A stretch of 64,000 nt of DNA, from contig CP120464.1 of NCBI GenBank assembly GCA_034226945.1, forward strand, positions 496,001 to 560,000, in the 5' to 3' direction. The position numbers and the translations under genes are program-made. Origin of the DNA: Picochlorum sp. SENEW3. Its lineage: Eukaryota. Positions 23,039 through 61,704 of this stretch are shown in pieces. How positions within the stretch are numbered: the stretch's first letter is position 1; each line of letters begins with the position of its first letter. A model generated the notes under the pieces. That model saw nothing but the letters and a program-made list of their open reading frames with translations. It did not search any database and was not told where the DNA came from.

Positions 23039-23319
23039 CTTCGTGACAGTTACTAGTAGTTGAGAGAAATCTGGAATAGTTGATCACTTTGCAGAACTAT
23101 AGTACTGAAATTTTAGTATACCGCGACAGATAGAGGTCTCTCGAACGTAGATAGCCAATATCGAACGTGCCCGGATACGTGTGTCCTGGATTTTTTTCTT
23201 ATGAAAGGCGCTAAAACTTTGGCGCTACAACAATGGGCGTACACTGTTTACTAAATCTACAATATTTGATAATCACTGTAAAACAAATGAGGAGGAGAAT
23301 GAATGTAGGGTCTCTCTTG

Positions 23320-25301: not shown

Positions 25302-25313
25302 GCATGTATTTTT

Positions 25314-43435: not shown

Positions 43436-44584
43436 ATGATATCATGCAATCAGCGTTCTCATAGACATACTATGGATATATTTACTCAAAAACATGGAGG
43501 GTTGTGTCCTCACGCCGAAGATTTGGTAGAAGGAGCGGTAGCTCAGTGTCCCTTCCTGAAACGCGTTTCAGAGAAACAGGGCAAAGATTTCGCCAAGAAC
43601 CTCGCACTGAATCCATTTAGTGCAATAAATGGTGTGAAGGAGCAGGGTCGGTCTCCCGAGAAGGCAGCACACCGGCCCTTGTTTCCTGAAGACGAGGGAC
43701 ACAGTTTCCAAGTGGTAATGGACTTGTTCCACGGGCCTCGAGGCTGCGTGCCATTGCATGATACCAATGAAGGTATTAGTGATGAGCAACCTGAGATGCC
43801 ATTGATGGCGTCCATGAGTTTGTCCGGGTTCTCAAATCTCCCAAACTCTGCTGCTAATATGATGCGGAGGCTCCGCTCCAAGAGGAAGCAGCAGCAGCAG
43901 AAACAGAAGAGGCAATTGAAAAACAGCAATCAGGGAGGAAATGCTGTATCGACAAATACAGGCACTGGGTCTTCATCATCTCATGTCTCTGTTGATAAGC
44001 GCCAGGATGGTTTTATCACGCCTCCATCTCATTCTCGGAAAGAGAATCCATCCAAGTATCGGCATAGCAGCAGAGGATTCTCAATCGGCAACTTTTTGTC
44101 GAGCTCTGCGAGTGGAGTGATCGCGTTAGGTGGTGCGAAGCAGCTGCAATGTCCTCCTGCCATAGTTGCCATGCGTGCTGCTGTTGCTCGCATGAAGGCT
44201 GTCAGGCAGTTGAAGCCCCAGGCTCTCCCTATACGAGCCCTTGCTCTCTCGAGTGTGGCCATATCTTTTAATCTTCCGTGTGGCATGCTGAGAGAACATA
44301 CCAAGAAGTTCAGTCCGGGTTGGATCCTGGCAGTGCATGCCACCGTGCCATTTGTTGCCATGCTTCGCAAGGCTGTCATGATGCCTACCTGGGGGCTTGG
44401 TCTGACTGTGGTAGGATCTATCATAGGGCAACAGATCGGAAGCTCTATAGAGAAGAAAAGATTGCGTGGGGAGTTCTCTATACGAATGCCAAGGCCAAAA
44501 GATGTCGCTGCACTTCCTCAGACACTTGTCAAGAGCTTGCTGCCAGATGGTCACCCCGCATCTCCAGCCATCAAAGCATGCTGA
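43436..44584 (+). CDS. Conserved green-lineage protein of unknown function
   Basis: CPFL...FHGPRGCVPL; CPPAIVAMRAAVA..LKPQALP; NLPCGMLREHTKKFSPGWILAVHATVPFVAMLRK. Confidence 0.8.
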   Translation: MISCNQRSHRHTMDIFTQKHGGLCPHAEDLVEGAVAQCPFLKRVSEKQGKDFAKNLALNPFSAINGVKEQGRSPEKAAHRPLFPEDEGHSFQVVMDLFHGPRGCVPLHDTNEGISDEQPEMPLMASMSLSGFSNLPNSAANMMRRLRSKRKQQQQKQKRQLKNSNQGGNAVSTNTGTGSSSSHVSVDKRQDGFITPPSHSRKENPSKYRHSSRGFSIGNFLSSSASGVIALGGAKQLQCPPAIVAMRAAVARMKAVRQLKPQALPIRALALSSVAISFNLPCGMLREHTKKFSPGWILAVHATVPFVAMLRKAVMMPTWGLGLTVVGSIIGQQIGSSIEKKRLRGEFSIRMPRPKDVAALPQTLVKSLLPDGHPASPAIKAC

Positions 44585-44654
44585 TGGGCGTATTACTACT
44601 ATTTTATTATTATTATTCTATCAGAATTTGTATACTAGTATGTTTTTGTAACAT
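44336..44654 (+). repeat. 319-bp direct repeat, left copy (3' CDS plus 3' UTR)
   Basis: Matches 46315-46633 with 2 substitutions. Confidence 0.95.
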
Positions 44655-44830
44655 GGGCTCATTGTTAATACCATAGAATGACTTGGGGTGGCTCTAAGAC
44701 CTGAATCGGAATTCCGGTCATGACTGGACTGATCAGTCATGAGCATCGCCAAATGTATCCGGAGGCTATACGGCATAGAACGTGAAAATCTAGGTAATAG
44801 TTCCTGTCACTACGTATATTTTAGTGCAGA

Positions 44831-45871
44831 ATGAAGAAAAGATTCAACATTTCTGCGTTGTTGATCGTGGCAATCCTTCTCTTGGTAAACTTTATCTGTA
44901 GGAGGAACTGCAAGGCAGAAACTGCAGCTTTGGACGTCTCGCCAATGGCATCGCACGAAAATCTCGAAGAAAGAGATATAGTAATAGTTCAATTTGTTAG
45001 TGCTTCAGTGGTTGGCACATATATGAGAAATTTTCATGAAAATGAGAAGCATTTGTTGTTGCACTTGAACAAGGCGGCACTGCTCATCTGCTCTCCGATA
45101 TCAGACGTGCTAGATGTGCAACGACACCTCATCACGGCTCTCAATTGGACTCATGTTGCATCATACTCTCATATCCATCAGTACACAAATGGTACTATAG
45201 AGGAATATGTGAGTCCGAGGGGCATTCGTATTTTGTTCCAGGCAATGCATGTTAACCTCCCTCCAAAGGTTTTGCAAAACCACCAAATTAAACCATCATG
45301 CGCGGGCAGGACATTCCAGATCTCGTATGCTTTGTACAGTGGGGCAGTTTTTAGCCATCATATTCTCCAACTACCTATTATAGACAAATTCAAGGTCTTT
45401 GTCAAAGTAGATGCAGACCTGACGTTCACTCAGGATGTGTCGTTTGATATCGGGCAAAAGATGATTAGTCAAGGGTGCTCTGTGATGCACTCTGTTTTAG
45501 AGGCTGTCTGGTCAGGTTGCGAAGACGGAAACTTAGAAGCAATCCGAACTTTTGCTGCATCCACAGGTGCCCAACAGCCCTTATCAGATTCATATGAGTG
45601 GTGTAATAAGGATATGCAAGGTAAAAGCACGAGTTCCATCATATATGGTAACTTCATGGGATATTCCCGCGATTTGATACAGCGCATACGTCCGCTAGCC
45701 TCTTGGTTGTATTACGAGTGGCAGATGGGATATTTTGTGAACAGATGGGGTGACCAGGGAGCATCCATTGCATTTGTGTGCTATGCTCTAGACATCCCAG
45801 ACATTACGAATGATCAGAAAGTCTGCGATTTTAGCAAATTAAGAAGTAATGAGTTTATCCACGCTGGATAA
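44831..45871 (+). CDS. Type II membrane glycosyltransferase-like protein (GT15/KRE2-like motifs), intronless
   Basis: N-terminal TM, FVKVDAD (DxD), IYGNF, GYFVNRWGDQ. Confidence 0.65.
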   Translation: MKKRFNISALLIVAILLLVNFICRRNCKAETAALDVSPMASHENLEERDIVIVQFVSASVVGTYMRNFHENEKHLLLHLNKAALLICSPISDVLDVQRHLITALNWTHVASYSHIHQYTNGTIEEYVSPRGIRILFQAMHVNLPPKVLQNHQIKPSCAGRTFQISYALYSGAVFSHHILQLPIIDKFKVFVKVDADLTFTQDVSFDIGQKMISQGCSVMHSVLEAVWSGCEDGNLEAIRTFAASTGAQQPLSDSYEWCNKDMQGKSTSSIIYGNFMGYSRDLIQRIRPLASWLYYEWQMGYFVNRWGDQGASIAFVCYALDIPDITNDQKVCDFSKLRSNEFIHAG

Positions 45872-46314
45872 TCAAGAATAAGAAAAAGACTAGGATGATG
45901 CAAGGAGAGATTACCAATTTTGACCATGTCAGGTAGTACATTACGTGGTACTCTGTACATGTGCAGCTTCCAGGCCATAATTTTTATCCTCCAAGATGAA
46001 GCCAAATCTTTATTATTTGCATGATAGCACAATCATATAGTTGGGACTAACAAACGAACCAAACACTACGTGATAACCAATCATGGTTCTCCACAGTAGC
46101 CACTGGATTCTATTCTTGATAATTCACGATGTCATTTATTTATCCAGCTTGCAGTAGCATCTAAGTTGTCTATTGCCATGCCTTACTTTGAATATAGGCT
46201 CGTGCGGAAATAGCAGTAATAATGGTACACTAATAATGCTACTTACATCCAGAAAGCTGGCTGGAACCACTGCGCATGCGCTGACATGAACTCTAGCAAG
46301 GACATCATTCATGC

Positions 46315-46633
46315 CATGCCACCGTGCCATTTGTTGCCATGCTTCGCAAGGCTGTCATGATGCCTACCTGGGGGCTTGGTCTGACTGTGGTAGGATCTAT
46401 CATAGGGCAACAGATCGGAAGCTCTATAGAGAAGAAAAGATTGCGTGGGGAGTTCTCTATACGAATGCCAAGGCCAAAAGATGTCGCTGCACTTCCTCAG
46501 ACACTTGTCATGAGCTTGCTGCCAGATGGTCACCCCGCATCTCCAGCCATCAAAGCATGCTGATGGGCGTACTACTACTATTTTATTATTATTATTCTAT
46601 CAGAATTTGTATACTAGTATGTTTTTGTAACAT
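46315..46633 (+). pseudogene. Promoterless 3' fragment of the 43436-44584 gene (right repeat copy)
   Basis: Encodes HATVPFVAML...AIKAC* only. Confidence 0.9.
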
Positions 46634-46637
46634 AGTC

Positions 46638-47813
46638 TCATGCACTATGCAATGAAGAGGAAAAATGTGCAGATAATGCTTTGAATTTTGTATGAGAGGA
46701 TGCAGCATGGCACTGATGCAGTTTCCCTTGAATATCCTGTAATAATGCTCGTGTGTCAGCATCTAATGCAGCCGCGTCCTCCGCGTTTCCACACGCCTGC
46801 ATTGCATCAGCAACTTTGGCCTGACTCGTGGCAACATCCAGCATCAAGGACACTTCAATTTCAGGTTGGATCTCCTCTGACTGTTTTAGATAGGTGTCCA
46901 GACGCTCCCGCCTCACATCTAATGCTCGCTGATAGTATGAGAGCGCTTCCTGCAGCTCGCCCTGAATATGATGCAATTCACCAACCTTGTTCAGAGAAAC
47001 ACTCAGTGCATGCAGCGTCTCATTGGTTGAAGACCCAGTCCTGTGTTCATCCGAAGAACTATACCGCAAAGATTCCTGTACTGCGTCAATGCTTTTTGTA
47101 TAATATTCCTTGGCCTCCTCAACATGCCCACTGTTCCTCTCACAATCCCCCAGACACCCATACACTGCCCCCAACTGAGGCAAGACTGCCGTCCTCTCAG
47201 CAGAATCACCCCGCACATACTCTTCAAAAACACGCTTGGATTCCGTAAATTTATGCCGTGCATTCGGGATATTCCCCCCCGACATGGCCCGCATCCCAGC
47301 CTGCAGATGAAAATATGCTCTATCCTGTACCCTCTCCAATGCTGTCTTGTTGGTCATCTCCTTCCCGCCCACAAACCCAACATCTTCCAACTCCCAAAAG
47401 CTCACATCCCCCGCATGAGCTGCTACAAACTCATCTATCGCCTCCTGAATCTCTATATTCGGCTGTATATCGGTGATATCTGCTCCACAAGCAGGACAGT
47501 CTCGACACTTTTCTATACAGTGTTTGCAGAATGTATGCCCACAATTCGTTATCGATGCCTCAAACATGATTGATTTACAAATAATACAATGGAAAATACC
47601 CATTCGAGGCCCCTCCTTTCCAGACCCAAACCCGAGTGGACATGTCCCAACTTCTGCGGAACGCTCTCTGGAAGAATTCGATCCTGTTTCTTGCTCATCG
47701 CTGTCTATATTTCTTTCTGAAGATTTCCTCTTCGATTCTGATGCTTCATGAGGTGAGCCCTGTGTATCAGTCTTGTTCTCCCATAGGTACGAAAACGGGC
47801 ACTTGGAGGCCAT
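46638..47813 (-). CDS. NCA1: NCA1-like RING + TPR catalase chaperone
   Basis: KCPFS/CPLGF, RING CIIC...CGHTFC..C..CPAC, QLGAVYGCLGDC, HALSVSLNKVGEL. Confidence 0.85.
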   Translation of the reverse strand: MASKCPFSYLWENKTDTQGSPHEASESKRKSSERNIDSDEQETGSNSSRERSAEVGTCPLGFGSGKEGPRMGIFHCIICKSIMFEASITNCGHTFCKHCIEKCRDCPACGADITDIQPNIEIQEAIDEFVAAHAGDVSFWELEDVGFVGGKEMTNKTALERVQDRAYFHLQAGMRAMSGGNIPNARHKFTESKRVFEEYVRGDSAERTAVLPQLGAVYGCLGDCERNSGHVEEAKEYYTKSIDAVQESLRYSSSDEHRTGSSTNETLHALSVSLNKVGELHHIQGELQEALSYYQRALDVRRERLDTYLKQSEEIQPEIEVSLMLDVATSQAKVADAMQACGNAEDAAALDADTRALLQDIQGKLHQCHAASSHTKFKALSAHFSSSLHSA

Positions 47814-47943
47814 TTTGTTGCTATTGTGTTACCGAATTCTTTACACTTGCGAGACTATTGCTTTGGTCATGTCAATAATATATTTAAATACGTTATTATG
47901 TAGTACATGCATGGCCCTCTTTGCCGAGAGGCAAGTAAAAAAA

Positions 47944-48621
47944 TCAAAATGACCGAATTGTCCCATCGGCCAATCCCTTGGCTTCTTCTGCTGTGTTTTC
48001 TCGACCTAGAATCGCATTGCGGTGGGGAAATCTCCCATACTGTTCCACGATATCTCTATGCAGTACAGCATAATTCAGCGTTTGGGTCAGAAATTTCACG
48101 GCCGCTTCCTCATTCGCTTTTTTTGCAGCATCTAATAGGGTTTCAAACTGGGCAACACACTCTCTCTGATCCTCGACAGATTCCGAGTGCATCAGTGGTA
48201 GCAGGACGAAGAACTTTTGAAAAAGAGGCATTTGGACCTTATCATGCAATAATCTCTTCGCCAACGGGAGAACAAGAGGATCAGCTTGGTACATTGTTGC
48301 AGAATTCCTGTGCACGTTTCTGCAGAACTGATCCCCGAGGAGAATATATGCCATCTTATGGTCGAAGGGTGCACTCGCATCACTCCAGTGACTATATGTC
48401 CCATCTAATACACGGTCAATGTGCTTGCCAAACTTTAATGCGATTGTAGCGTCAGTTGCATCATTTTTTTCCATCCACATGGGAAGATGCTGTGTCAGGG
48501 GATCCCATTCGCTCGCATTTCTCCATGAGGCTGTTCCATCACCAAACCAAAAGTCTAAAATCTCTTCTGCAACGCCATGCTCTTCATGAGCTGCCTCAGT
48601 CTTACTTTCGCTATTTCCCAT
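47944..48621 (-). CDS. DUF924 family protein
   Basis: EILDFWFG, ILLGDQFCRNVHR, LPLMHSE, HRDIVEQYGRFPHRNAILGRENT. Confidence 0.9.
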   Translation of the reverse strand: MGNSESKTEAAHEEHGVAEEILDFWFGDGTASWRNASEWDPLTQHLPMWMEKNDATDATIALKFGKHIDRVLDGTYSHWSDASAPFDHKMAYILLGDQFCRNVHRNSATMYQADPLVLPLAKRLLHDKVQMPLFQKFFVLLPLMHSESVEDQRECVAQFETLLDAAKKANEEAAVKFLTQTLNYAVLHRDIVEQYGRFPHRNAILGRENTAEEAKGLADGTIRSF

Positions 48622-49049
48622 GGCACTCGGATGACTGCTGTATTTTGTATACGGGGGCGTATAGGGATGGGTTTGTTTTTCTAAAGTACGTATAGGGTTT
48701 ATGATACACTTTTTACCGGTGTATAGTACTCTTATAGACGCAGCACGTATACACGACAATGGTTGCAATTGTAAGATCATTCAAGAAAACCTCGGAACTA
48801 TCGACACTACTGCTATTCTAGAAAATCTACAGCATTACTATCGATTTAAAAGTATTTATTTCTATATTTTCATCTGCTGTGTGGATTCTGTCAATGATGT
48901 TTGAGCAAATGAGGGGCATGCCCCCATGAGGCCATGGCCTTACATAAGGCTCCACTCCTGGGGGATCTGGATCCCTCTGCCCCTTTAATCAAGAGAATGT
49001 CCGTGTACGGTACAAACAATGTTTCTACTCCTGAAGCGGTGGTTTCTAT

Positions 49050-50195
49050 TTATTCAATAGTATACCTGCTGCAGAACTTGTTCATTTCCTGTGCATCAGA
49101 TTCAAAGTACTTTTGTAGATGTAAATGATATTGCTGGAGTTCCTGCCTCTGTGGGTCTGTCCCATTCAGATCCAAAAGTCTGTTGATCCCCAAAGAAGGC
49201 ATGGCGAATGGTTCGACACAAAGATCGTGGTGCGTCAAGTTTGCTACCGTCTGAATTCCATCCATGACTTGGCTGCACATTGTTATCAGCTTTGAGTGCA
49301 GGACGCAAATTTTTGGAAAGTCCGGTAGCCACTTCTCCCAATATGGCAATGTTTCTGAATATCTATACTGAGCCACGCCCTCATGGTAATACTTACTGCA
49401 TCGATCAGTGACTGATATTCTTGCCATGTCACTGAACATTGTTGTTGGTTCCACTGGATACCCCAAGGATTTCCATGCAGATGCAATACATGATTTCCAT
49501 GCATCAAACGAAAGCAGTGACAACTGGCTCCATCGAAAAAAATCTGGTAGTGTCAGGTTCTTTCCCAGATTTCGATGAAAAAACAGAGAGATGTGTGCAT
49601 CAATGGGATCTCTCAAAGTGAATACTAGCAGAGTATTGGAGGGATGAAGCAGTTGCATGATTCTTGTTGGTGTGAGTGGATTGTCGTGATAATTTGGAGT
49701 CTTCTCCGCTAGATATTTGATAGTGGGTGGGCTGCTCTGCACTTTTGAGAAATATCGACCATATTCATAATAATAATTCTTTAATGGCCATCGCTGTGAG
49801 AAAAAGTACGATTCTGATCCACAGCAACCTTTCTTGGCAGCTCTTGCATCCGCAAGCCCAATTTCAGGATGCCCCCCCAACATGGAAAATAGTGCTGTAC
49901 TGCCAGTCTTTGCTGGACCTACTCCTAGGATAAGAGGATAATATCTGCTTCCATTACCCATAGGGATTCCACTCATCTTTCGGAAGCACGTCTGCCTCCA
50001 GCCTCTGTAGACGCAAACTTGATCCCCTATGTTGGGCACTCGTACTCTTTCAAGGCTACTGCTCTGTTGAATCTCAGGAAATAGTTTTGAGTGCGCTTGA
50101 TGTCTCTCCATGAAAAAGAAGACAGATAGATACAGAAATAGCATCCCTAATGCAAAAGCAAACTGCAAGATATTTGAGGTTTGGACTACCCACAT
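49050..50195 (-). CDS. Type II membrane sulfotransferase (heparan sulfate sulfotransferase-like), intronless
   Basis: 5'-PSB GPAKTGSTAL, EKTPNY, 3'-PB LRDPID...S; N-terminal TM. Confidence 0.85.
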   Translation of the reverse strand: MWVVQTSNILQFAFALGMLFLYLSVFFFMERHQAHSKLFPEIQQSSSLERVRVPNIGDQVCVYRGWRQTCFRKMSGIPMGNGSRYYPLILGVGPAKTGSTALFSMLGGHPEIGLADARAAKKGCCGSESYFFSQRWPLKNYYYEYGRYFSKVQSSPPTIKYLAEKTPNYHDNPLTPTRIMQLLHPSNTLLVFTLRDPIDAHISLFFHRNLGKNLTLPDFFRWSQLSLLSFDAWKSCIASAWKSLGYPVEPTTMFSDMARISVTDRCSKYYHEGVAQYRYSETLPYWEKWLPDFPKICVLHSKLITMCSQVMDGIQTVANLTHHDLCVEPFAMPSLGINRLLDLNGTDPQRQELQQYHLHLQKYFESDAQEMNKFCSRYTIE

Positions 50196-50913
50196 GGCTG
50201 GTACAAGACAAGATTAGATACATCTGGTATCACCAAAAAAGATATGAGTGCAATCTCCACGACTCGTTAGCTCCCTAGCACTATTAGCGTGAATACATAC
50301 AAGGAATCAAATCATCTGAAGCGGCCCTTGGGGAACGTTGTTGCATCAGCAGACTACTTTTTACAAGACGCATGAACCTGCAAGGCAATCCTTGTGCAGC
50401 AGTAGCCTAAGAAGAAAATTGGAATTTACTCTACCCCAATCCCCAAAATCTCATGCACCAATCTTCACTCATCCATATCGATATATGCTATGGAACCTTC
50501 GTAACCTTGAAACTTTGAAGTTTCAAACTCGGGTCCCTCCAGAGGCTTAAGCCGAGGAAGTTGGATCCAAGGGAGTCAACCAAAATTAAACAGGACTGGA
50601 CGACAAAGAATATGGCCATTGATTGTCGTATAGTTGTTGTTAGATAACATGCGCTGATCCCATACTGGCCGTGCCATGACAATAAATGCATACCTATTCC
50701 TTCAATTTTACGTGACGTGCACAGCATGTCACGTAATGACGATCAAGCGCTTCTAGAAGAAGTACCGCATTTCCCCGTCAACGCGAATCATCAATGCGAG
50801 ACACGGCCTCAATATATTGTATTTCCTATTGGAGCCTCTAGTCCGGCTGACGGGTTCAATGGGTATCCAGCCTGCAACCTACCTTTTCCGTGCTGTACAC
50901 TGCTATTAGACGT

Positions 50914-52395
50914 ATGTGGAAAAGGTGGAAGCGTTCGTTCGTCTGCAACGCAAAATTGACATATGCAGTACCAGCACTCGTGCTGACATTTGTTATCGTT
51001 TCATCTTTAGTGATATCGTGTAAAGATACGAGAGTCTTGACTTTGAATAGAAAAGATGTGGGTCGAGACAAAGAGACCTCGAGGAACACGATCGTATCAC
51101 TTGCTGAGATTCGAGATCAACAACAGAATTACTGCGAGAGACTAGAGTCGATTCCTGACACAATATCTTCAAGGAATCTCGGTAGGTCATTCGAGAAAGG
51201 CGTTGGCACGATGAATCTTCGAAAGTCAGCGCTTCGTACAAGAAATGGGTCCTATGCAATTTACACTCTGAGTCAAAAAGGATATCATGATATTGTCAGT
51301 CACTCTATTCACAATTCCCAGGCAAGTCGGTCGGATACGTATTTCGAAATGAAGAAACCACGTTTCTCAGATATTGGTCGTCTGCTGTAACCTGTCCCGA
51401 ATATGATAAACTGTGTTGAATTCGTCTGCAGCGATGGGAAATGGCTGACGTGACTGCAGTATTACAAAAGTTACGATTAGCTGCGGAGGGAAAAAGTCCC
51501 AAAGACATATACCTTCTCGACATTGGTGCAAACATTGGTGTATTTACACTTAATGCAGCTGCTTCAGGTTTTAATGTTCTCTCCTTTGAGGCATTTAGAC
51601 CAAATCAAGAAGCTTTGCTGATGTCCATCTGTGCAAACAAGATATTTGACAGGGTGACCATACTCAAACATGCTTTAGGTGATGGAAAAGCATGCGGGCT
51701 CTACTCCGATAAGAACAATGCTTTGAATGGATTTATAAGCTGCTCAGAGAGAGAGCACTTCAGTGGGTACGCATCATACCTTTGGAATACTCACACTATG
51801 TGATATGCTGGGCGCACATTGATTTTCTTTCCACATCTCTATAGATCCAACTTCATGCATGAGGTAAAAACATATGCGCTTGATGAACTAATGCTGAATA
51901 GTGTCGACAAATTGGCAGGGAGAGTAGGGGTATTGAAGATTGATGTTGAAGGCTTTGAGCCAAAGGTGAGTACATTCCTGCAGCATGTCAACGCATGTTT
52001 GACAAGAAGTCCATCATTCAATATGACATAACTGTATGTATTATTTATACCCTTCAGGTCTTTCAAGGAGGCTCAAATTTTATTAGCCTCATCAAGCCTC
52101 GCTACATTCTCACTGAAATCAACTCCGAAATGCTTTCCAGAGGCTCAAATACAACTGTCAAGGAATACATTCACCAGGTTTGTCTTATAATCCTTGTCCT
52201 TCAACAATGTTATATATATGACTTAGTTGTACCATGTATGTTGCGTAGATCATGCGCTTGGGTTATACACCAAAGAAAAGAAGTTTTGATGGTCCAGAGT
52301 TGACAGAAAAAGACATTGATGGTCTAGACATGAAGCAGCAATCTCTAGCGCATAACGAGACTATCTTATTGAACATGTACTTCGAAGCAATGTAA
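50914..52395 (+). CDS. Membrane-anchored FkbM-family methyltransferase, 5 exons
   Basis: TM, DIVSHSI..|RWE, LLDIGANIGVFTL, SFEAF, VLKIDVEGFE, YILTE. Confidence 0.88.
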
Positions 52396-52747
52396 ACAAA
52401 ACCTTCCAAGAACCCAACAACTACATATGCTCAACCTCTTAAGAGTCTTATCTGAAAAGAAAAAAAGTCAAAGTTTTCATCCAGTTGTCTTCCAAAGCAA
52501 GAGCGCGCCAACCACCTATTTGGCATCCTTTCCATTTATGGTTTTTGCCGTGTGCACTATTCTTTCATTATTGATGTATTTTTCAACCTAAATCTGCCTC
52601 AGATGGAGAGATTCGACTTGTCGATGAAGAAGAAGAATGCGACACTCCAGTAGTAGAGTCCAGTTTGATAGAAGCGCTCAGGATCCGTATCGATAAGACA
52701 TAGATTTACTACTAGAAGAAGAACATAAAAACAAGACCTACCGAGTC

Positions 52748-53449
52748 ATGGCTGGAAGAAATCTGAGTCACCCACGCCAGACAGTCAAGCTCTTGGCCTT
52801 GCATAGCTTTCGAACATCCGGTGCGATATTAGAGAAACAAATGGCACTATCAGGCTTCTCCAAGGTACTACAGGAGGAATGCAATGCTGAGATTGTCTTT
52901 ATCGATGCGCCGAATGTCGCATCTGGGCCCATTCCCAATGATGTTGTGGCTGCCTTCCCGAAGACCTCATACTATGAATGGTGGAATGCCACCCAGCGAG
53001 AGGAGGATGGGCAGTGGGAGTACGTGAACGCTGATAGATCGTTGGAATATATTGAAAGGGTATGGAATGAGCATCACGGGTTTGACGGCATTGTCGGGTT
53101 TTCTCAAGGAGCTGCCATGGCAGCGCTGCTTGCGGGGCTGCAACATTCGGGGCAGGCCTTGACAGGATTCTCAAAGCTCAAGTTTATCATTTGCATCGCT
53201 GGCATTCGAGTGCGAGATCCCAGATTTTCAGCATACTATGATAATCTTGCCCATATACCCTCGGTGCACATCATTGGGCAGAATGATCCCATCAAGAGGC
53301 TTACCAACCAGTTGATCAGGAGCTTTCAAGCCCCTGTTGTGTTGACTCATGACCGTGGGCATGTGGTTCCTCGAATACACGATGATATGAAGCGTATTCT
53401 TGTCCAATTCATCGAAAAATCACATTCGCCACGACAGGCACACCTGTAA
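52748..53449 (+). CDS. Serine hydrolase FSH1/OVCA2 family
   Basis: LALHSFRTSG, FIDAP, FDGIVGFSQGA, SVHIIGQND, HDRGHVVP. Confidence 0.92.
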   Translation: MAGRNLSHPRQTVKLLALHSFRTSGAILEKQMALSGFSKVLQEECNAEIVFIDAPNVASGPIPNDVVAAFPKTSYYEWWNATQREEDGQWEYVNADRSLEYIERVWNEHHGFDGIVGFSQGAAMAALLAGLQHSGQALTGFSKLKFIICIAGIRVRDPRFSAYYDNLAHIPSVHIIGQNDPIKRLTNQLIRSFQAPVVLTHDRGHVVPRIHDDMKRILVQFIEKSHSPRQAHL

Positions 53450-53502
53450 TCCATGCTATGTATAGTAATGCTAGAAGAAGGGTGGCATGCTGCTGCTGAC
53501 TC
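52877..53502 (+). repeat. ~626-bp direct repeat, left copy (3' 80% of FSH1 CDS plus 3' UTR)
   Basis: Matches 59431-60058 with 7 coding substitutions and a small difference in the 3' UTR. Confidence 0.95.
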
Positions 53503-53804
53503 ATGGTACGTACATCTGGTATTTGTGGTGGAGGTCTGTGTGGATATAGAAGTATATTTGCTCGGTATTAGACATTGCTGCCGAATGCAGTATAATAATA
53601 TCTTGATAGAGTCACCCGGCTAATAAGATATAATTCACACGTAGAGTACATGTTTTCATTTATCATGAAAATGTTATTTGCATTCCATGGAGCAGTTACG
53701 ATTCATAGCACATGAACTACAATTGTAAACGCGACAGAAGGGTTACACGGTACCAAGAAAACGAGTCCGGATCCAAAAGAATCATTTATCACATAAGTAT
53801 TCTT

Positions 53805-54788
53805 CTAATCAGATACTGTACTGCAAAAAGCATGCAGCGTAAATTTCTCTGCAGGATAGCTGGTGCGATTTGCCTGCAATGCTGCTGGGCAATCATTGGC
53901 CAAACGATTAGGCCACGTATATAGATTCTCAGAAAAGCAATCTTGCTCATCTTTTTTCTGTAATATGACAATATTTGATCCAAACATGATTGATTTCACC
54001 CAGTGATCCACACTCCCAAATACAGTCCTATCATTATCAATGAATTTCTTGTTCACAACTTCTGTCAGACGCTGCATGGCCCTGAACATTGTATCTTTGA
54101 TCTCACAACCACCTCTAGTTATACTAGAACCATACAGTGCCTGACCCTTGCCCCAGAAAGATGTCTCGATATCTTCGATGATGTACCATCCACCTGGCTT
54201 GAGAGCTTTCTCAAACAGAACTTGGTATGAAAGTGATTGCTGCTCAAAATGATGGCCACCATCATCAATAATAATATCAAATCCACCTCCTGTCACAGAA
54301 AGAAAGTCAGTTTCTAGAAAGGACCTATTTGATTGCGAGCCAATAACCATTGAAATCGATTGACCACCCTTGGTTTCCAAGGTTGCCTGGTTCATATCCA
54401 GTCCCCACAAGTCAACAAGAGGAAAATAATCTTTCCAAAGCAAACTGCCACTCCCAGTATCAATACCGATTTCAAGCATTTTGAATTCTTTATCCCTGTA
54501 CGGCTCAAAAATAACCGGATAGAATCGCTGGTAAGCAGCATGACTGAATGTAAATTTGCTAGGCTTGTATATTTCTGCCAGTTCAGCCAGTGCTTTCCTG
54601 CTCTTGACATCACGGTGTGACACAACCGTGGTAGATTCTACACCATACATGGGGTTCAAACCTTGCATTCGTCTCATGCCATATCCGATCAATATCCCAA
54701 GTAAAAGAAACAAAGGTGGTGAGGAGAACCACCAAGGCACTTTCCTCACAGACCAAAAAAGGGGCTGCTCCATTATAATTTGTGACAT
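53805..54788 (-). CDS. Membrane-anchored class I SAM methyltransferase (MycE/TylE-like sugar O-methyltransferase motifs), intronless
   Basis: MLEIGIDTGSGS..W, WGLD, FDIIIDDGGH, LKPGGWYIIEDI. Confidence 0.8.
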   Translation of the reverse strand: MSQIIMEQPLFWSVRKVPWWFSSPPLFLLLGILIGYGMRRMQGLNPMYGVESTTVVSHRDVKSRKALAELAEIYKPSKFTFSHAAYQRFYPVIFEPYRDKEFKMLEIGIDTGSGSLLWKDYFPLVDLWGLDMNQATLETKGGQSISMVIGSQSNRSFLETDFLSVTGGGFDIIIDDGGHHFEQQSLSYQVLFEKALKPGGWYIIEDIETSFWGKGQALYGSSITRGGCEIKDTMFRAMQRLTEVVNKKFIDNDRTVFGSVDHWVKSIMFGSNIVILQKKDEQDCFSENLYTWPNRLANDCPAALQANRTSYPAEKFTLHAFCSTVSD

Positions 54789-55537
54789 GAAAATTCTTCC
54801 ATACAATCTTCTGACACAAATCTAATATGTTGCAGTCATGCTGGTGGGCCGGTATATTTCTGCCCAGGTTTCCTGTCTCGCTTCCTTGGTCAAGTGTTGA
54901 AACTGGTGGCACGGTACGCCAGGAACTGCTGATACAAAATCCTTGTCTCACAGAAGAAAAGACTTCAAAGAAGATCTACTGCCAGATTCAAATCCGATCA
55001 TCGGATGGGGGTTAAAGAAGGCTTCTCTTCAATTGTGACTCACAATTGCGATATGCTCAAATGGCCCGTTCGTCATACAAGTTGTACCGGACCCCGCTTG
55101 CAATTGGGCCCGTGCCCCAGTACCATCATCGGCAGATGCGCTACATTCTGTATATCTCGTAATTAATTACAGTACCATTTTATTCAGTTATGAGTCTTTC
55201 GGAGCTTTACGGTATCTGATTACGGTAAATTATGACAGAGGTTAGGGGACGACAAAAAATATAGTGTCAAAATCAAAATGAAAGTTGGGTTTCTGGGAAG
55301 TACGCTTATGTCTCGAGTGCTCGCCTGACCGCGAGGGTTCAGGAATCTGACCAAAGAATTCTGCAGATTTGGTCACCTCGATTTGATTCTGACACCCACA
55401 TCTGGCAGTAGTAGTAAGGAGGTAATTGCTGTACCCGTAAGACTAGAACTGTCTCACTTTTGCAGAGGATATCTCGGACTATGATAGATAGATTCACGTG
55501 GATATATAACATATATATATATGAGTACAGAGATACG

Positions 55538-56674
55538 ATGAGAGCACTAATTTCTGGATCAGTCCCGCCAAATTCGGGACAATCCTGGCAGAGAAACATG
55601 CTGCTGTTTCTGTTGCTGGCATGTTTCGTCTCGTTTGTCATGTTTGGAACGCAGATACCACGTCGGTTGTCGATTCAATCTTGTATTCTGAATTCTTATG
55701 GAGACAGTATGACGTATAGGTTCATCAACTACACCCCATCTATTCTGGAGGAAGCATGGTACCGCAACAGAGGACTGTATATTGACAATGCATCACGCAT
55801 CTGCTCTGACCTTGATACACATGCCAAGGAACTGGCATCATGGGTCTCTTTCAATACAAATCATCTAAAGAATAATACATATGATGAAACCTCATGGAGT
55901 GGCATAGATAGTGTGTTCTCTAAATTTGTGTATGAGAAGAGTAATGGAGAAACTTTTACACGAATCATAGAGCCATTGGTGGGGCATTTCCGACATCCGT
56001 ATGCTTTACCACACTGCAAACCGATGAGCGTAGAAGCAGTTAATGTCCAAGATAGATCTTATGTTGCTTTTGGAGGCTTGAAGCCATTGGATAACGATGT
56101 ATTCTTTTCCGGTAAACATTACTTATTTGATTTGGGAACCGCTGATTTTCCAACATCTTTGGGATATCTGATAGCAACGTATGCTAAGATTGGGGTGGAC
56201 TTTGACAGGATATGGGCCTGGGAGTCTACTCCAAGGCCAAAGTACTGGGATTCTGTCCCTTCAGAAGTGCAAGGAAAACTTCACTTTTATAACAAGGGGA
56301 TATCATCTGATATCGACGCTCAGTCCCATCCGCTACAAATTCTGTCAAAGTTCTACCAGCCAGGGGACTATGTGGTACGTGTGATACATGAGTATTATAT
56401 ATTCTGGCTCTGATGTGTATTATCTGTGCGAAACCACGACATGCAGGTGTTTAAATTGGATATTGACAACAGCGAATTGGAAATGTCTGTGATGAAGGAA
56501 ATCATGGAAGATGAACATCTGCAGCACATCATATCTGAACTGATGTTCGAAATGCATTATGACTCTCCAGATATGGAACGGTACTTTGGCAAGCCCAACA
56601 TGTCCTACATCAATGTCTTGGAAACATTCCGTTCATGCAGACAGAAGGGCATCTTCTTGCACTACTGGCCATAA
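55538..56674 (+). CDS. Membrane-anchored putative methyltransferase (FkbM-like fold), 2 exons
   Basis: TM, IEPLVGHFRHP, YLFDLG, IWAWE, DYV|VFKLDIDN..E, ELMFEMH; intron 56375-56446. Confidence 0.65.
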
Positions 56675-56743
56675 CTGATCTATATCCAGCAGCCATAGGA
56701 TATGACAAGCTTTTTCATAATAGGACGTCAGTGTATATTGCAG

Positions 56744-57742
56744 TTACATTTCTTTCCTGAAATATGCTGAATGATCGTCTATATATGTCAATTCTATGTC
56801 CAACATACGCACTTTCTGGAAGTCATTCCATGCCCTCTGGACATCTGGATGGGACTTTATGTCGTCAAAAATAACAAATCCATTCTTGGTCACATGATCA
56901 TACAAATTCTCAAGCACGTCATAATATGAATCATAAAAATTTCCATCTATTCGCAGCACAGCAAGCCTCCTTCCATTCCTATCCAACTCTCTCCTAAACT
57001 GTGGTGCAGTGTCTTGAAATAAACCTTGATGAAACTGAACCCTATCATGATTCAGCAAACCATACTTCCAAAAGTTGAATTTGACTTGTGTTTGACTCAC
57101 AGCAAGATAATCATTGTTGTTCCCATACCCACCGACGTCAGAGCTCAACTTTCCGAATGCATCAAAAACATGCACCATCCTCTCCCTCTCGTTCAAAATA
57201 TCAAAGAGACCAGCAGCAAAGATGCAACTCCCACCCCTCCACACACCAAACTCTGCAAAATCCCCTTTTGTTTGAGTTTGAATCACATCAAAAAGAATTT
57301 CCTTAATGTTCCGTATCCGAAGGTGGCCAACCATTGTATGTCCAGTCTCCCCTGGCCAGTCGTTTCCACGCATCCTTTTCTCATCCAATGCAAATTCACT
57401 CTCACTCATATCAGTTATATTCACATGTGTTTTCAGCGTGACATCATTATACAAACTACCCGTGACAGCATTCTCCAACAATGTCAAATATTTTTCAACG
57501 GTTTCCTCAAGAGGGACATGTGGTTGTTTGTTCGTCATCTTCGTATCCGCCTGAATGCCCTGACCGGAGATGGGAATTATTTCTGCTATTTTCAGATCCT
57601 TGAGTGACGTCGTAATCATGACCGCTAGCACTAGTCCGAGAAGCACCGTGAAGACAGCGACCAACGTGCTTTTCTCTCTTTGAACACGATCAACCAATTG
57701 GTTGATTGCATTACCACCGGAAATAGAATTCAAGTAACTCAT
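56744..57742 (-). CDS. TylF/MycF/NovP-family O-methyltransferase with TM anchor, intronless
   Basis: DWP...TMVGHLR, GDFAEFGVWRGG, VFDAF, GLFQDT, LRIDGNFYDS, LYDHVTKNGFVIFDD. Confidence 0.9.
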   Translation of the reverse strand: MSYLNSISGGNAINQLVDRVQREKSTLVAVFTVLLGLVLAVMITTSLKDLKIAEIIPISGQGIQADTKMTNKQPHVPLEETVEKYLTLLENAVTGSLYNDVTLKTHVNITDMSESEFALDEKRMRGNDWPGETGHTMVGHLRIRNIKEILFDVIQTQTKGDFAEFGVWRGGSCIFAAGLFDILNERERMVHVFDAFGKLSSDVGGYGNNNDYLAVSQTQVKFNFWKYGLLNHDRVQFHQGLFQDTAPQFRRELDRNGRRLAVLRIDGNFYDSYYDVLENLYDHVTKNGFVIFDDIKSHPDVQRAWNDFQKVRMLDIELTYIDDHSAYFRKEM

Positions 57743-58036
57743 GTAGGCCGGGTACGCACTTCTGCCATGGTTGTTGCCAGTGGGGAGGCCACAGTCGCCA
57801 AGAGTACTCACCAAACGTATGGTAGTACCAATTCACACCGTCCAAAATATCCTCCCACAATGCAAATATACCAGAACTGCCTGATATACGGATGATAGGC
57901 CAGAGAAATGGTGGCTATTTCACATCATGCCTTACATGCGAAATGCGTACATCTTCAATTCACACATGCTGCAGGTGACCTGCATCATCTCAGTATCCCG
58001 AATCTGGATTCCAGATCTGCTGCTCTGTGTATCAAT

Positions 58037-58948
58037 TCAACCAAAGCATTCAGAGCTCGCATTTCGGACACGCATCACACTGTTCTGGTAATGGTTGATT
58101 CTGATCCTTTCCTTCCTTGGATGGTTTACATGAGACGGGAAATAAAAGGGGCACATGCTTCTCAGAATTGCACCATATCTTTTCATAGCAAATGCTGCCA
58201 CATTCTCTGATCCCCAGTAGAAACGAGGGAAAATCATCAGGTCAAGCGCACTTCGATTTATGTTTTGGAAAACGAATCCATCAAAAGACCCTATAGATCT
58301 ATATTCATCACACCCTTTTATGACATTACCAGAGGAATCGATTTCAGACCTAGATAATGCATACACGACATCACGATTTCCTTCCTGAAAAGAGCAATTG
58401 AATTTCCAGCGAGGAAAAATATTATCAATGCTTGAAGCAACTTTTGGTCCTCGGTACAAAGATCCAATTAGAAATGTTGTTCCATAATTTATAGAACAGC
58501 AGTGCCAAAGATCAAATGTTGTACCAAAAGAGAAACTCTGAAGGGAGGATAACACCTCTAGGGATTCTGAAACAATGACGTAGGTAAAGTTCTGGTTTTT
58601 AGATACAGTTTGTTTGATTGCATCCTTTATAGATGAGAACACTTCATTATCTACAGCATAATCAATCTGGCCAACAACTTTTACATTGCTGGAATCATCC
58701 TTGGCTATTGACCTGTAATAGTTTCGACAGCAATTCCCCTTACTACTGACCTCACACATGAACCCGATACCATCTTCATTCGAAGTTGAAAATCTGTAGA
58801 GAGCCATGCATCCAATCAAGAATACGCCGGACAAAATGAACAGAGTCGCACGTTTGGTACGAGTTCGTAACGAGAATATCTCGTTTACTGTGCCTCGAAC
58901 CAAATCGCATTTCTCACGCGTCTTCCAAAATCTTTCATTCGTAAACAT
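58037..58948 (-). CDS. Type II membrane protein, possibly glycosyltransferase-related, intronless
   Basis: N-terminal TM; YALSRSE...SFDGFVF...YWGSENV...H; 303-aa ORF. Confidence 0.5.
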   Translation of the reverse strand: MFTNERFWKTREKCDLVRGTVNEIFSLRTRTKRATLFILSGVFLIGCMALYRFSTSNEDGIGFMCEVSSKGNCCRNYYRSIAKDDSSNVKVVGQIDYAVDNEVFSSIKDAIKQTVSKNQNFTYVIVSESLEVLSSLQSFSFGTTFDLWHCCSINYGTTFLIGSLYRGPKVASSIDNIFPRWKFNCSFQEGNRDVVYALSRSEIDSSGNVIKGCDEYRSIGSFDGFVFQNINRSALDLMIFPRFYWGSENVAAFAMKRYGAILRSMCPFYFPSHVNHPRKERIRINHYQNSVMRVRNASSECFG

Positions 58949-59430
58949 AGCATACTAGTAATGATAGTTGATTTGTTTGGGGAGATTTTGATTTGGGTGG
59001 GTGTGTCGCCAACTCGGCAGTGACTGGTATGAAGGCATCATCGGTGCAGCAGAGACGCTGCTTGTCACAATACCAACGTATATACGTTAACTTTTACGCA
59101 ATGCAACGTTGCATACCGTAAGGTCCAGGTTGTAGCCCTGCGAAGGGCCTCACAGAGCTCTGTAAATTACGAGACGCAACGTAATATTATGCGACGAATC
59201 ACTCAGTCATGCCGCAATATTTTACAGCGGTACGTGAACGAGTATAGATAAAAGCATCTGCATTTAGAGTTCTTATCAATGCATGCATCGCTCCCATACA
59301 ATATACAACATACATGTAGATACCATGGTGTGTCTCACACGAGGGAAAAGCCAGATGCTTTGCAACGCAACATCAGCCACAAGCATGTGTTTGTAGATAG
59401 ATTAGGGTACAGTTTGAGGGATATATTCAA

Positions 59431-60058
59431 GAATGCAATGCTGAGATTGTCTTTATCGATGCGCCGAATGTCGCATCTGGGCCCATTCCAAATGATGTTG
59501 TGGCTGCCTTCCCCAATACATCATACTATGAATGGTGGAATGCCACCCAGCGCGAGGAGGATGGGCAGTGGGAGTACGTGAACGCTGATAGATCGTTGGA
59601 ATATATTGAAAGGGTATGGAATGAGCATCACGGGTTTGACGGCATTGTCGGGTTTTCTCAAGGAGCTGCCATGGCAGCGCTGCTTGCGGGGCTGCAACAT
59701 TCGGGGCAGGCCTTGACAGGATTCTCAAAGCTCAAGTTTATCATTTGCATCGCTGGCATTCGAGTACGAGATCCCAGATTTTCAGCATATTATGATAATC
59801 TTGCCCATATACCCTCGGTGCACATCATTGGGCAGAATGATCCCATCAAGAGGCTTACCAACCAGTTGATCAGGAGCTTTCAAGCCCCTGTTGTGTTGAC
59901 TCATGACCGTGGGCATGTGGTTCCTCGAATACACGATGATATGAAGCGTATTCTTGTCCAATTCATCGAAAAATCACATTCGCCACGACAGGCACACCTG
60001 TAATCCATGCTATGTATAGTAATGCTAGAAGAAGGGTGGCAGCTGCTGCTGCTGACTC
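59431..60058 (+). pseudogene. 5'-truncated FSH1 copy (right repeat)
   Basis: Lacks the first 43 codons and the start; the rest is intact to AHL*. Confidence 0.9.
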
Positions 60059-60591
60059 GGATTCCCATGGTCAACGGGATGATTTTCCACCTGTCCCGAG
60101 TGGCGCCTGATTCGCGTCAACGTGGCGGGAAACAACGTACGTGTACAAATACCCTACTACTTTCATCTAGGCACTCATTTATAATATAAATACGAGTACA
60201 ATAGTGTACATAAAGGGATTTGTGCGTGATTTACGCTGAACCTTGGAGTACTACGAGTCGCGAGTGACGAGAGCTCGGGGTGTTTGGATTGGACAATCTG
60301 TATGTGTTCTACATCCAATTATCCATCAGAGTTACATAATTAAGTATAATTGGGACAATTGATCGAGGTATGGGGCATTAGGATGGTAGGGAGGGGAGAT
60401 TGTCGTTGTTGGAATTTGGAACTTTTCAGGCTCTAGGGTCTCGGATGGATGTCGTGGTGGTCGAGGGATTGTCCTCGAGAATAAACAAGGGTGATTTATA
60501 CGTGTATACGTTGAGGTGGGACGAGGTGGAGTCTACCACGTGTCGTCGGGTGGTTGACCACGTTTGGGTCTTTGTGTTGTAGGAGGGTCAT

Positions 60592-61704
60592 ATGGCGATG
60601 GAGACTGGCAGAAAGAACAGTTTTCCATCGCATGAGAAGCAGGGTGGTTTAGAGGGGTATGCGGCTGTGGCTGCTGCTGGGATTGGGCATCATGAACCGA
60701 GTCCTGTGGGGTCTCAGACACAGAGACAGCGTGCGAATGCATCATCGAAGAAATCTGTTGTACCAAAAGAGCAAATTTGCTTTGATTTTACAAAAGGGCA
60801 ATGCCGGCGTGGGGAGAATTGCAAGTTTAGTCACGATGTGGGGTACATTATTGAGGTCAATTCACAAGAAAAGGGCATCTGTTTTGACTTTTTGAAAGGG
60901 ACCTGTACTCGCGGCGTGATGTGTCGGTTTTCGCATGATTTGAACAATTTAAAGCCGATGATTGATCAGTCGACGCCGAAGAAGGAGACGATTGGAAAGG
61001 GAAAGAAAAAGGCACCAATTTGCTATGATTTTGTGAAGAATATGTGTTCCAAAGGGCAGCATTGCAAGTACTCTCACGATTATTCGTCACTGTTTCAGCA
61101 AGTGCACAAGCGTTCTTCTACTGGAGAAGTTGAGCAGAATCCAAATACGGTGTGCAGTGATGTTTGCGTGGACTATCTGAGAGGGCAGTGTCGCCATGGA
61201 GATGGATGCAGTTTGTATCATGTGGGGGTGTCGGGGCAGCATTCGGACATCCCCGCGTCTGCAGGGTTGTGTCGTGTGCAGACTCATGATTCAAATCAAG
61301 AAACGTTGGAGAATCTACTGGCGCGATTGAAAAGGGCTCAGTTGCAAGATGATCTCATGGTACCTGCATCTGGTGTGTCATACCCACCCCCATCAATGCC
61401 TTCACAGGGCGCTCTGTTGATGGATGCCTATGCGAAAGACTCTGCAAACAGGTTGATGCCTATGAATAATACAATGGCGATGTCTCCACCTGTGACGCAT
61501 ACGGAAAAAATGGCGATGAAACAGTATTTGGCCAAGGAGCATGAAGCAAGAGATTCTCCAACAATTGGAGCAGGATGGCATGGAGGGCTCGCACATGCTC
61601 CTCGTCAGAGTTTATTTGGCAGCACGGAAGACTCGATGCAGCGACATGGGCAAAGCTTGCATGAGTTTCTAGCAGTTCAGTCAATTTGGTCACAAAAGTG
61701 TTGA
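60592..61704 (+). CDS. Tandem CCCH zinc-finger protein
   Basis: Four C-x7-C-x5-C-x3-H motifs (CFDFTKGQC.., CFDFLKGTC.., CYDFVKNMC.., CVDYLRGQC..). Confidence 0.9.
   Translation: MAMETGRKNSFPSHEKQGGLEGYAAVAAAGIGHHEPSPVGSQTQRQRANASSKKSVVPKEQICFDFTKGQCRRGENCKFSHDVGYIIEVNSQEKGICFDFLKGTCTRGVMCRFSHDLNNLKPMIDQSTPKKETIGKGKKKAPICYDFVKNMCSKGQHCKYSHDYSSLFQQVHKRSSTGEVEQNPNTVCSDVCVDYLRGQCRHGDGCSLYHVGVSGQHSDIPASAGLCRVQTHDSNQETLENLLARLKRAQLQDDLMVPASGVSYPPPSMPSQGALLMDAYAKDSANRLMPMNNTMAMSPPVTHTEKMAMKQYLAKEHEARDSPTIGAGWHGGLAHAPRQSLFGSTEDSMQRHGQSLHEFLAVQSIWSQKC

Follow-up and report, generated by a model that had tools for sequence, protein, structure and literature searches.

Insertion with long target duplication has been described in prokaryotes, where restriction–modification genes that are accompanied by no mobility genes lie between direct repeats of up to about 420 bp (Furuta, Abe and Kobayashi 2010, PMC2853133; this and the other papers given here by PMC number are drawn on for the portions available to us, and statements that rest on them extend to those portions). 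In a human case, an insertion was explained by a replication fork that switched back to a more proximal place (PMC5120786), and in the picoalga Ostreococcus a small outlier chromosome that is rich in glycosyltransferase genes is rearranged in virus-resistant lines, for which a link to virus adsorption has been proposed (PMC6116238). Here we analyse a 64-kb stretch of contig CP120464.1 from the green alga Picochlorum sp. SENEW3 (assembly GCA_034226945.1, positions 496,001 to 560,000; hereafter the window), in which two cassettes, insert 1 with one gene and insert 2 with four, each lie between an intact gene and a headless copy of the 3′ end of the same gene. Picochlorum genomes are compact, about 13–15 Mb with about 46% GC, and include those of diploid strains (PMC11092101, PMC12633428); the literature that we searched, which excluded subscription papers on Picochlorum gene transfer, held no description of this design in the genus. 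The reading that we favour, with a probability of about one half, is that two separate cassette insertions took place without a recombinase, each with a long target duplication (0.3–0.6 kb), in the gaps behind stop codons.

Comparison of the window, which contains no N, with itself by blastn and by a repeat search revealed three repeat pairs in the blastn alignments. Two of them flank the cassettes and were termed R1 (327 bp, 98.8% identity) and R2 (628 alignment columns, about 626 bp, 98.6% identity); the positions of all features are collected in Table 1. The third pair (23317–24207 versus 25311–26211) is 83.6% identical. The repeat search, which recovered both R1 and R2, found no inverted repeats in the window. 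R1 comprises the final 249 coding bp of gene A, the left neighbour of insert 1, together with about 70–78 bp past its stop codon, and has a clean core of 319 bp (44336–44654) in which the copies differ at two positions. R2 is derived from a gene for an FSH1-type serine hydrolase, and its copies differ by seven coding substitutions and by a 2-bp insertion or deletion in the tail. The order is the same at both sites, namely a whole gene, the insert and then, in direct orientation, a copy of the gene's end that has no gene start; upstream of R2 copy 2 the sequence is unrelated to the hydrolase and carries an in-frame stop. Each insert sits exactly between two complete repeat copies, with no partial repeat on either side. 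A protein-level self-search with the 401 stop-to-stop open reading frames (ORFs) of at least 60 amino acids revealed no further gene-end relics in the 64 kb. A first-pass annotation of this DNA had described one architecture occurring twice in 16 kb, with duplicated gene ends of 319 bp and about 626 bp that are promoterless, and the self-comparison bears out both the design and the lengths, as well as the missing gene starts. Its term ‘housekeeping’ for the target genes is loose, as gene A encodes a hypothetical protein without a Pfam family whose 90% cluster consists of Picochlorum proteins only (96–97% identical to those of five relatives).

Picochlorum strains are reported to be diploid, with assemblies given as primary and haplotype sets (PMC11092101, PMC12633428), and two haplotypes stitched end to end by an assembler could mimic such a pattern. 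We compared public short-read runs with the window by their contigs and depth: X1, the best match (13.3 Mb of contigs, possibly the window's own sample), X5, a run of another study, and X12, from a third study and about 2–6% diverged from the window. In X1 the contigs stop at the repeat borders, as they should in a de Bruijn graph. Insert 1 is present as one contig (44625–46344) at a depth of 60.8 and insert 2 as one 6003-bp contig (53458–59460) at a depth of 64.6, with flanks at 58.8–62.4, and both ends of each insert contig run into repeat sequence. The collapsed repeats form contigs of 319 bp (R1, depth 94.3) and 611 bp (R2, depth 104.2); by our calculation this depth of about 1.5–1.6× corresponds to two copies, because words not shared by the two copies are counted a single time. 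In X5 a contig (44611–46344) crosses the junction between R1 copy 1 and insert 1 with 44 letters on the repeat side and reaches 30 letters into R1 copy 2, against a bar of 31, and in X12 a contig (58014–59466) crosses the junction between insert 2 and R2 copy 2 with 36 letters in the repeat. The R2 depth sums in X12 resembled two copies and were set aside, as depth is not copy number; from this run we rely on the bridging contig only. Both repeats and both inserts are real and not a mis-assembly. That the pattern is a stitching artefact is extremely improbable, given that the X1 inserts stand at full rather than half depth with the repeats at about 1.6×, that their ends run into the repeat, that X5 and X12 each provide a contig across one junction, and that the cargo proteins are on record on two contigs.

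A metagenome scan yielded a 2823-bp contig, L001, that is 84–87% identical to the window and carries site 2 in the empty state. Positions 597–1283 of L001 correspond to 52761–53453 of the window and contain one complete hydrolase gene, and positions 1304–2823 correspond to 60068–61578, beginning about 20 bp past the hydrolase and including the CCCH zinc-finger gene. Insert 2 and the second hydrolase copy are both absent, and the flanking repeats of site 2 correspond to one uninterrupted copy in L001. Because L001 joins the hydrolase directly to the zinc-finger gene, the ancestral order at site 2 was hydrolase followed by zinc-finger gene, uninterrupted. That site 1 was also once uninterrupted is indicated indirectly, by gene numbering and short JGI contigs in relatives rather than by DNA of an empty site. 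In both haplotypes of Picochlorum sp. BPE23, the locus tags of gene A and of the RING-TPR gene that follows insert 1 are adjacent (2485/2484 and 4393/4392). In P. renovo, four tags separate the CHD5-like gene from the hydrolase, where the window has six genes including cargo 1, the gene of insert 1. Two JGI contigs, of 2910 and 3833 bp, for each of which proteins of gene A, RING-TPR and DUF924 are on record, are too short for the extra 1979 bp; we infer from the equal lengths that each trio lies on one contig. X12 has no cover over 44902–46169 and a further run, X9, almost none, as would be the case with an empty site 1; since no contig spans the gap, we do not count this as evidence. Both blocks are genuine insertions that separated two formerly neighbouring genes. 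The earlier claim of insertion into target sites is thus upheld by DNA at site 2 and by locus tags and short contigs at site 1, and the two outcomes that the first-pass annotation had named as fatal to its proposal, a haplotype concatenation and the lack of any empty site, were not what the X1 depth, the junction contigs and the relatives revealed.

The two inserts differ in age. Insert 2 is found at the same position in BPE23 (hydrolase tag 2481, cargo 2a 2480, TylF gene 2478) and in P. renovo (tags 2502, 2503, 2505 and 2506), and in P. oklahomense the hydrolase and cargo 2a are on one transcript contig; being common to several Picochlorum strains, it is therefore old within the group. Its content is still changing between strains, as follows from a 1212-bp deletion and from differences in X12. 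The deletion removes the first 262 codons of cargo 2d together with its upstream region, and ends 56 bp before R2 copy 2; at the joint there is a single extra A but no repeat. In X5 the depth is 14.8 for the deleted form versus 5.16 for the full form, and in X9 the same joint is found at a depth of 4.2 with 82 letters on the shorter side. In X12 other letters replace 57692–58013, and a minor joint runs across 56740–57570. Insert 1 is young and not fixed, as judged from the close cluster of cargo 1, which has three members only, and from the low depth of the insert 1 contig in X5 (8.89 versus about 17–28 in the flanks).

On sequence grounds, the copies of each repeat look like two natural alleles of the working gene and not like a copy and its decayed twin. 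Six of the seven coding differences between the R2 copies are synonymous (P = 0.0007–0.0025 under random change). At the five sites that could be polarised with L001 as outgroup, the fragment is ancestral at four and the working gene at one; a dead fragment should accumulate changes more quickly than a working gene, not more slowly. The sole amino-acid difference in R2 is Lys72 in the gene and Asn72 in the fragment; Lys72 also occurs in the hydrolase of another strain (P0254), and all other relatives have Asn. In R1, gene A has Lys366 and copy 2 has Met366, and both residues are found in relatives, even in the two haplotypes of BPE23 that lack insert 1; with its two differences, the R1 pattern could also be due to chance. 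Together, the allele differences between the repeat copies point to exchange between haplotypes: a second haplotype may have been involved in the event itself, or alleles may have been exchanged afterwards by recombination or conversion.

Such differences would also be explained if the design had been built in two steps, in the version in which an insertion was followed by end-joining between homologues, the end of the cargo being joined to the middle of the gene. In the other version, the cassette landed later in an already existing tandem duplication of the gene end; small tandem duplications are common, and a spare copy would offer a safe landing place. We consider a two-step origin improbable, because a random later hit would rarely place an insert exactly between complete copies at both sites, and no intermediate, whether a bare tandem repeat or cargo without a second copy, was present in the runs or relatives examined.

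A search of the 80 extra ORFs (at least 45 amino acids) in the two inserts assigned none to a recombinase or transposase family, with one stray match below threshold, and the five main cargo genes encode enzymes or have no family assignment, with no recombinase at either end. There are no tRNA genes in 40000–64000. The insert ends carry no terminal inverted repeats, the ends of insert 1 and insert 2 are not similar to each other (6 of 6 comparisons within shuffled scores), and the four junctions share no motif or attachment core. The R2 junctions have 0–1 base of microhomology, and the R1 junctions have a CATGC doublet and an imperfect CTCAT match. Target duplications of 319 and 626 bp are not of the short, fixed-length kind made by transposons, and we found no long terminal repeat or hallmark ends; at neither insert were the hallmarks of integrase islands found, namely a tyrosine or serine recombinase gene, an attachment core and a tRNA site. 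These results agree with the first-pass annotation, to which no transposase, integrase, long terminal repeat or terminal inverted repeat was visible.

The same data bear on the idea of an unrecognised mobile element with a preference for gene 3′ ends, whose enzyme is encoded elsewhere and which makes very long target duplications. Such an element would account for two events of the same design close together and for right borders that both lie 53–78 bp behind a stop codon. We regard it as very improbable: the inserts share no ends, motifs or inverted repeats and encode no movement enzyme, the repeat lengths differ two-fold, and cargo 1 has a single close cluster, with its three members, among 5.8 billion clusters, unlike an element that multiplies.

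Under the favoured reading of two recombinase-free insertions, a break in the short gap behind a stop codon, 78 bp behind it at site 1 and 53 bp at site 2, would be repaired by the joining of foreign or ectopic DNA without homology. The duplication might then result from the filling in of staggered ends or, as we think likelier, from repair synthesis that returned, on the homologous chromosome, to a point upstream of the break, in a manner resembling FoSTeS (fork stalling and template switching) or MMBIR (microhomology-mediated break-induced replication). Re-entry 0.3–0.6 kb upstream would leave the stretch in between present twice, and a switch to the homologous chromosome would explain why the copies carry different alleles of the working gene. 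In a compact genome, only events of this type would survive, as both neighbours keep their ends. The tidy design of site 1 would be understood in this way, because the two genes there converge with about 75 bp between their stop codons and the copy gives each gene a tail of its own. The repeat lengths differ between the sites (319–327 versus 626–628 bp), as do the insert lengths. In favour of the reading, a preprint describes transgene entry in Picochlorum as non-targeted and efficient homologous targeting as rare in green algae (PMC12633428). As to the empty state of site 1, the convergent arrangement of gene A and the RING-TPR gene (44584–46640 in the window) means that their transcript tails must overlap on opposite strands there, because only about 75 bp would separate the stops.

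Several points weigh against this reading. The selection argument is weaker at site 2, where the zinc-finger gene starts well beyond the repeat (534 bp). A templated copy should leave a template, and no donor locus is known; the ten matches of cargo 1 include none from an NCBI-annotated genome outside its own cluster. The junction microhomology is weak and ambiguous. The allele signature is drawn from 7 sites in R2 and 2 in R1 and from one outgroup that is 13–16% diverged, and recombination or gene conversion at a later time would account for it just as well. The short-read graph is equally compatible with integration and with an equimolar circle beside an empty site, and the integrated form is stated by the window's own assembly only. 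That two events of one design lie within 16 kb and both bring glycan enzymes is also more orderly than would be expected of random break repair, unless selection is strong.

The first-pass annotation had proposed a circular intermediate with a homology arm, entry by a single crossover and present loop-out, for which we found no positive evidence; nor did we find any for its suggestion that glycans are switched against viruses or grazers. Entry of this Campbell type, in which a circle from another strain or haplotype carries the cargo and a piece of the target gene and can reversibly loop out again, would yield exactly the observed succession of intact gene, cargo and truncated direct copy. Repeats of 319–626 bp with 98.6–99.4% identity are good recombination substrates, homologues of RAD51, DMC1 and RAD54 are present in Picochlorum (PMC6811619), and an arm that stems from another haplotype or strain would be expected to give the two copies different natural alleles, as observed. 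The partial presence of insert 1 in X5 and the ambiguity of the short-read graph are likewise compatible with a circle and an empty site. We nevertheless hold this route to be unlikely, as the circle must first have gained its arm beside the cargo, which amounts to a prior illegitimate insertion at the same spot and makes the model less economical by the added steps. No circle was seen, the insert depths in X1 (60.8 and 64.6) equal that of the chromosome (58.8–62.4), no strain has the cargo beside a single repeat, and non-targeted transgene entry (PMC12633428) also speaks against it. In addition, the relatives without insert 1 are the more distant ones, so that its absence looks ancestral and not like loop-out.

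A recombinase-free cycle would combine the two routes, with entry by duplication, loop-out of a circle that carries a homology arm, and re-entry in the other haplotype or in another strain. It seems doubtful to us. If it were true, the cycle would be an integrase-independent eukaryotic analogue of the genomic islands of bacteria; it would account for the similar build of both islands, the presence of insert 1 in some strains and not in others and the different alleles in the repeats, and Picochlorum, and perhaps other compact diploid algae, would gain, lose and exchange surface-glycan cassettes by it.

Table 1. Features of the two insertion sites and other glycan-related genes, with positions counted from the first letter of the window.
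Feature	Position	Strand	Description
Gene A, left neighbour of insert 1	43436–44584	+	Intact; hypothetical protein, 382 aa, no Pfam family
R1 copy 1	44336–44662	+	Gene A end and about 78 bp of tail
Insert 1	44663–46314	+	1652 bp, one gene
Cargo 1	44831–45871	+	346 aa; N-terminal membrane anchor and putative GT-A glycosyltransferase, closest to GT15/Kre2-Mnt1 and GT8
R1 copy 2	46315–46641	+	Promoterless gene A end; opposite strand is tail region of the convergent RING-TPR gene
RING finger/TPR gene, right neighbour of insert 1	46638–47813	−	End of R1 copy 2 abuts its stop codon
FSH1-type serine hydrolase gene, left neighbour of insert 2	52748–53449	+	Intact; PF03959, E 1e-44
R2 copy 1	52877–53502	+	Hydrolase residues 44–233 and 53 bp of tail past the stop
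Insert 2	53503–59430		5928 bp, four genes
Cargo 2a	53805–54788	−	MycE/TylE-like sugar O-methyltransferase; weakly hydrophobic N-terminal stretch (score 1.52)
Cargo 2b	55481–56674	+	Membrane-anchored; family without Pfam model; one intron, exon 2 about 56440–56674
Cargo 2c	56744–57742	−	TylF-type (macrocin) O-methyltransferase; N-terminal anchor at residues 27–45
Cargo 2d	58037–58948	−	Membrane-anchored; possible GT-A-like (GT2-like) fold
Stretch missing in other strains	58163–59374		1212 bp; joint 58162→59375 with one extra A, no repeat
R2 copy 2	59431–60058	+	Promoterless hydrolase fragment and tail, then ancestral downstream sequence
CCCH zinc-finger gene, right neighbour of insert 2	60592–61704	+	Starts 534 bp beyond the repeat
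Nucleotide-sugar transferase	11147–11941		Without flanking repeats
GT2+GT1 fusion	26420–29023		Without flanking repeats
Sulfotransferase-like gene	49050–50195		Without flanking repeats
Methyltransferase-like gene with introns	50914–52303		Without flanking repeats

The products of all five cargo genes have one hydrophobic stretch near the N terminus (best 19-residue Kyte–Doolittle scores of 2.59, 1.52, 2.31, 2.65 and 1.84), and the evidence supports four of the five as putative glycan-modifying enzymes, cargo 2b standing apart. The view that all five are type II membrane glycan enzymes thus holds for the N-terminal stretch in each case and for the enzyme class in four. Cargo 1 has no Pfam match itself, and 3 of 10 members of its family match GT15 (PF01793). 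Its predicted model (predicted local distance difference test (pLDDT) 73, predicted template modelling score 0.75) matches XXYLT1, CmsA/Ktr4 and Kre2p/Mnt1p (Foldseek E 2.9e-8 to 1.6e-7), with E 2.9e-8 for XXYLT1 and a template modelling (TM) score of 0.53 for Kre2p/Mnt1p. Residues D194 and D196, which are invariant in 10 sequences, presumably form the DxD motif. The modelled fold supports the assignment of cargo 1 as a putative GT-A glycosyltransferase.

In insert 2, cargo 2a matches the sugar O-methyltransferase of PDB entry 3ssm (E 1.2e-17) and the demethylmacrocin O-methyltransferase of entry 8ia9 (E 2.1e-8), its Pfam matches being below cut-off, and has orthologues in BPE23, P. renovo and P. 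oklahomense. Cargo 2c matches PF05711 with E 4e-61 and 206.9 bits (cut-off 23) and has orthologues in BPE23 and P. renovo. In tylosin synthesis, the namesake enzymes of cargo 2a and cargo 2c add methyl groups to adjacent hydroxyls of a single deoxysugar, and by analogy the pair may build a di-O-methyl sugar. Two stretches of cargo 2a (53868–53903 and 54431–54464) also match other contigs of X1 and X12 that continue unlike the window, which suggests that the genome has paralogues of this enzyme at other loci.

Cargo 2d is a lead as a GT-A-like glycosyltransferase: the Atlas's own model has TM scores of 0.50–0.60 to glycosyltransferase clusters in the Atlas structure search, and the family consists of four clusters and has no Pfam family. 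For cargo 2b, 625 relatives were found at E ≤ 0.001, and of the 18 that were scanned, 16 had no Pfam family and 2 had GT61 upstream of the domain. The ORF 55481–56413 is only part of this gene, as its relatives continue with a conserved KLDID stretch, which was found in a second exon ending at 56674; the intron is short, and the gene converges on the TylF gene, cargo 2c. The cargo 2b model (pLDDT 82), which was made without the last exon, had no Foldseek match at E ≤ 0.001, and the profile of cargo 2b against PDB sequences gave nothing below E 0.4. VIA gave a best Z of 6.9, below its bar of 8, over residues 191–307, mostly to methyltransferases, and the Atlas feature search led to unnamed fungal clusters; from these predictions, the domain is possibly Rossmann- or methyltransferase-like. 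The cargo as a whole probably alters cell-surface or secreted glycans.

We also considered where the cargo came from. A viral origin was rejected, as no relatives were found in viral contigs searched with the single proteins of cargo 1 and TylF and with the family alignments of cargo 1 and cargo 2d; giant-virus clusters named among the Atlas structure matches of cargo 2d are leads only. The cargo genes have a GC content of 40–43% versus 44–50% in neighbouring genes, about 2–3 points below the neighbourhood, and their synonymous codon use is as host-like as that of the neighbours, so that composition gives no clear sign of a distant donor. Relatives of cargo 1 with 63–75% identity are P0002, P0003, P0004 and P0260. 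For P0002, the one with 75% identity, and for an orthologue of cargo 2a (P0065), the contig on record is in each case a Logan contig 4101 bp long; if the two share one contig, this would hint at a cargo 1-like gene inside the insert 2 region of another strain.

The remainder of the window is ordinary nuclear DNA, with genes for RPA1, SecY, a DNA glycosylase and a choline kinase, and its proteins share clusters with those of BPE23, P. renovo and P. oklahomense; the organism is a trebouxiophyte green alga. Other glycan-related genes of the window lie outside the two inserts (Table 1). The ORFs 50914–51390, 51441–51803 and 51995–52303 look like exons of a membrane-anchored methyltransferase-like gene, which the public annotation P0250 (a 494-aa ‘esterase’) fuses with the hydrolase, probably in a merged gene model. 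The large-subunit gene of replication protein A (12685–14722) is spread over three ORFs and hence has introns, so that long intronless genes like those of the cargo are not the rule for every gene. The third repeat pair was rejected as a third island, as it belongs to a tandem family of intron-containing genes with weak PAN-like matches; a protein of this family (23.3–26.2 kb) is 38% identical to the fn3-containing ORF 20094–20702.

How small, gene-dense algal genomes take up genes without wrecking the neighbours is poorly described, and here two gains can be read to the base, one of them old and one still varying between strains. The enzymes that were gained probably act on surface sugars, and genes of this class have been connected with the adsorption of viruses in other picoalgae (PMC6116238). 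Should phased Picochlorum genomes turn out to hold many such sites, a short direct repeat with a gene end as one of its copies would serve as a search key for recent gene gain, and a testable route for reversible glycan variation in aquaculture and biotechnology strains would be at hand. If these are the only two cases, they are a tidy but ordinary pair of structural variants.

Among the systems to which the locus may be compared, the outlier chromosome of Ostreococcus shares with it a variable content of glycan-enzyme genes in a picoalga (PMC6116238). Ostreococcus belongs to another algal class and has a whole atypical chromosome with large rearrangements, whereas Picochlorum has single cassettes among ordinary genes, with a GC content that is lower by about 2–3 points only. 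Campbell-type integration of plasmids, islands and prophages likewise leaves the target gene intact and its 3′ part duplicated beyond the cargo, and is in principle reversible; here, in contrast, there is no integrase, no short attachment core and no circle in sight, and the arms are long and unrelated between the events. The human FoSTeS/MMBIR cases (PMC5120786) resemble the present ones, as read here, in that a foreign segment is inserted and the fork re-enters upstream of its exit point, which duplicates the target; junctions there have 0 to a few bases of microhomology, to which the weak and ambiguous matches at the Picochlorum junctions may correspond. The human inserts copy another locus of the same genome, whereas no template is known for the Picochlorum cassettes, and the events described here are of kilobase scale in a 13-Mb genome. 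Closest in form are the prokaryotic insertions with long target duplication, which are recognised by repeats of more than 30 bp that vary between events (PMC2853133); the repeats here measure 319–327 and 626–628 bp. As in those systems, the cassettes carry no mobility gene and the direct repeats far exceed the footprints of transposons and integrases, and the repeat is single-copy in the empty genome, varies in length from case to case and often overlaps the 3′ end of a gene. Unlike them, the Picochlorum sites are in a eukaryotic nuclear genome and carry glycan enzymes in place of restriction–modification genes, the repeats of 319–626 bp are at or above the upper end of the lengths in the table rows consulted in PMC2853133, and the copies have different alleles, which suggests a second haplotype. 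A footprint known in prokaryotes is thus found twice in a eukaryotic alga, with repeats of 0.3–0.6 kb.

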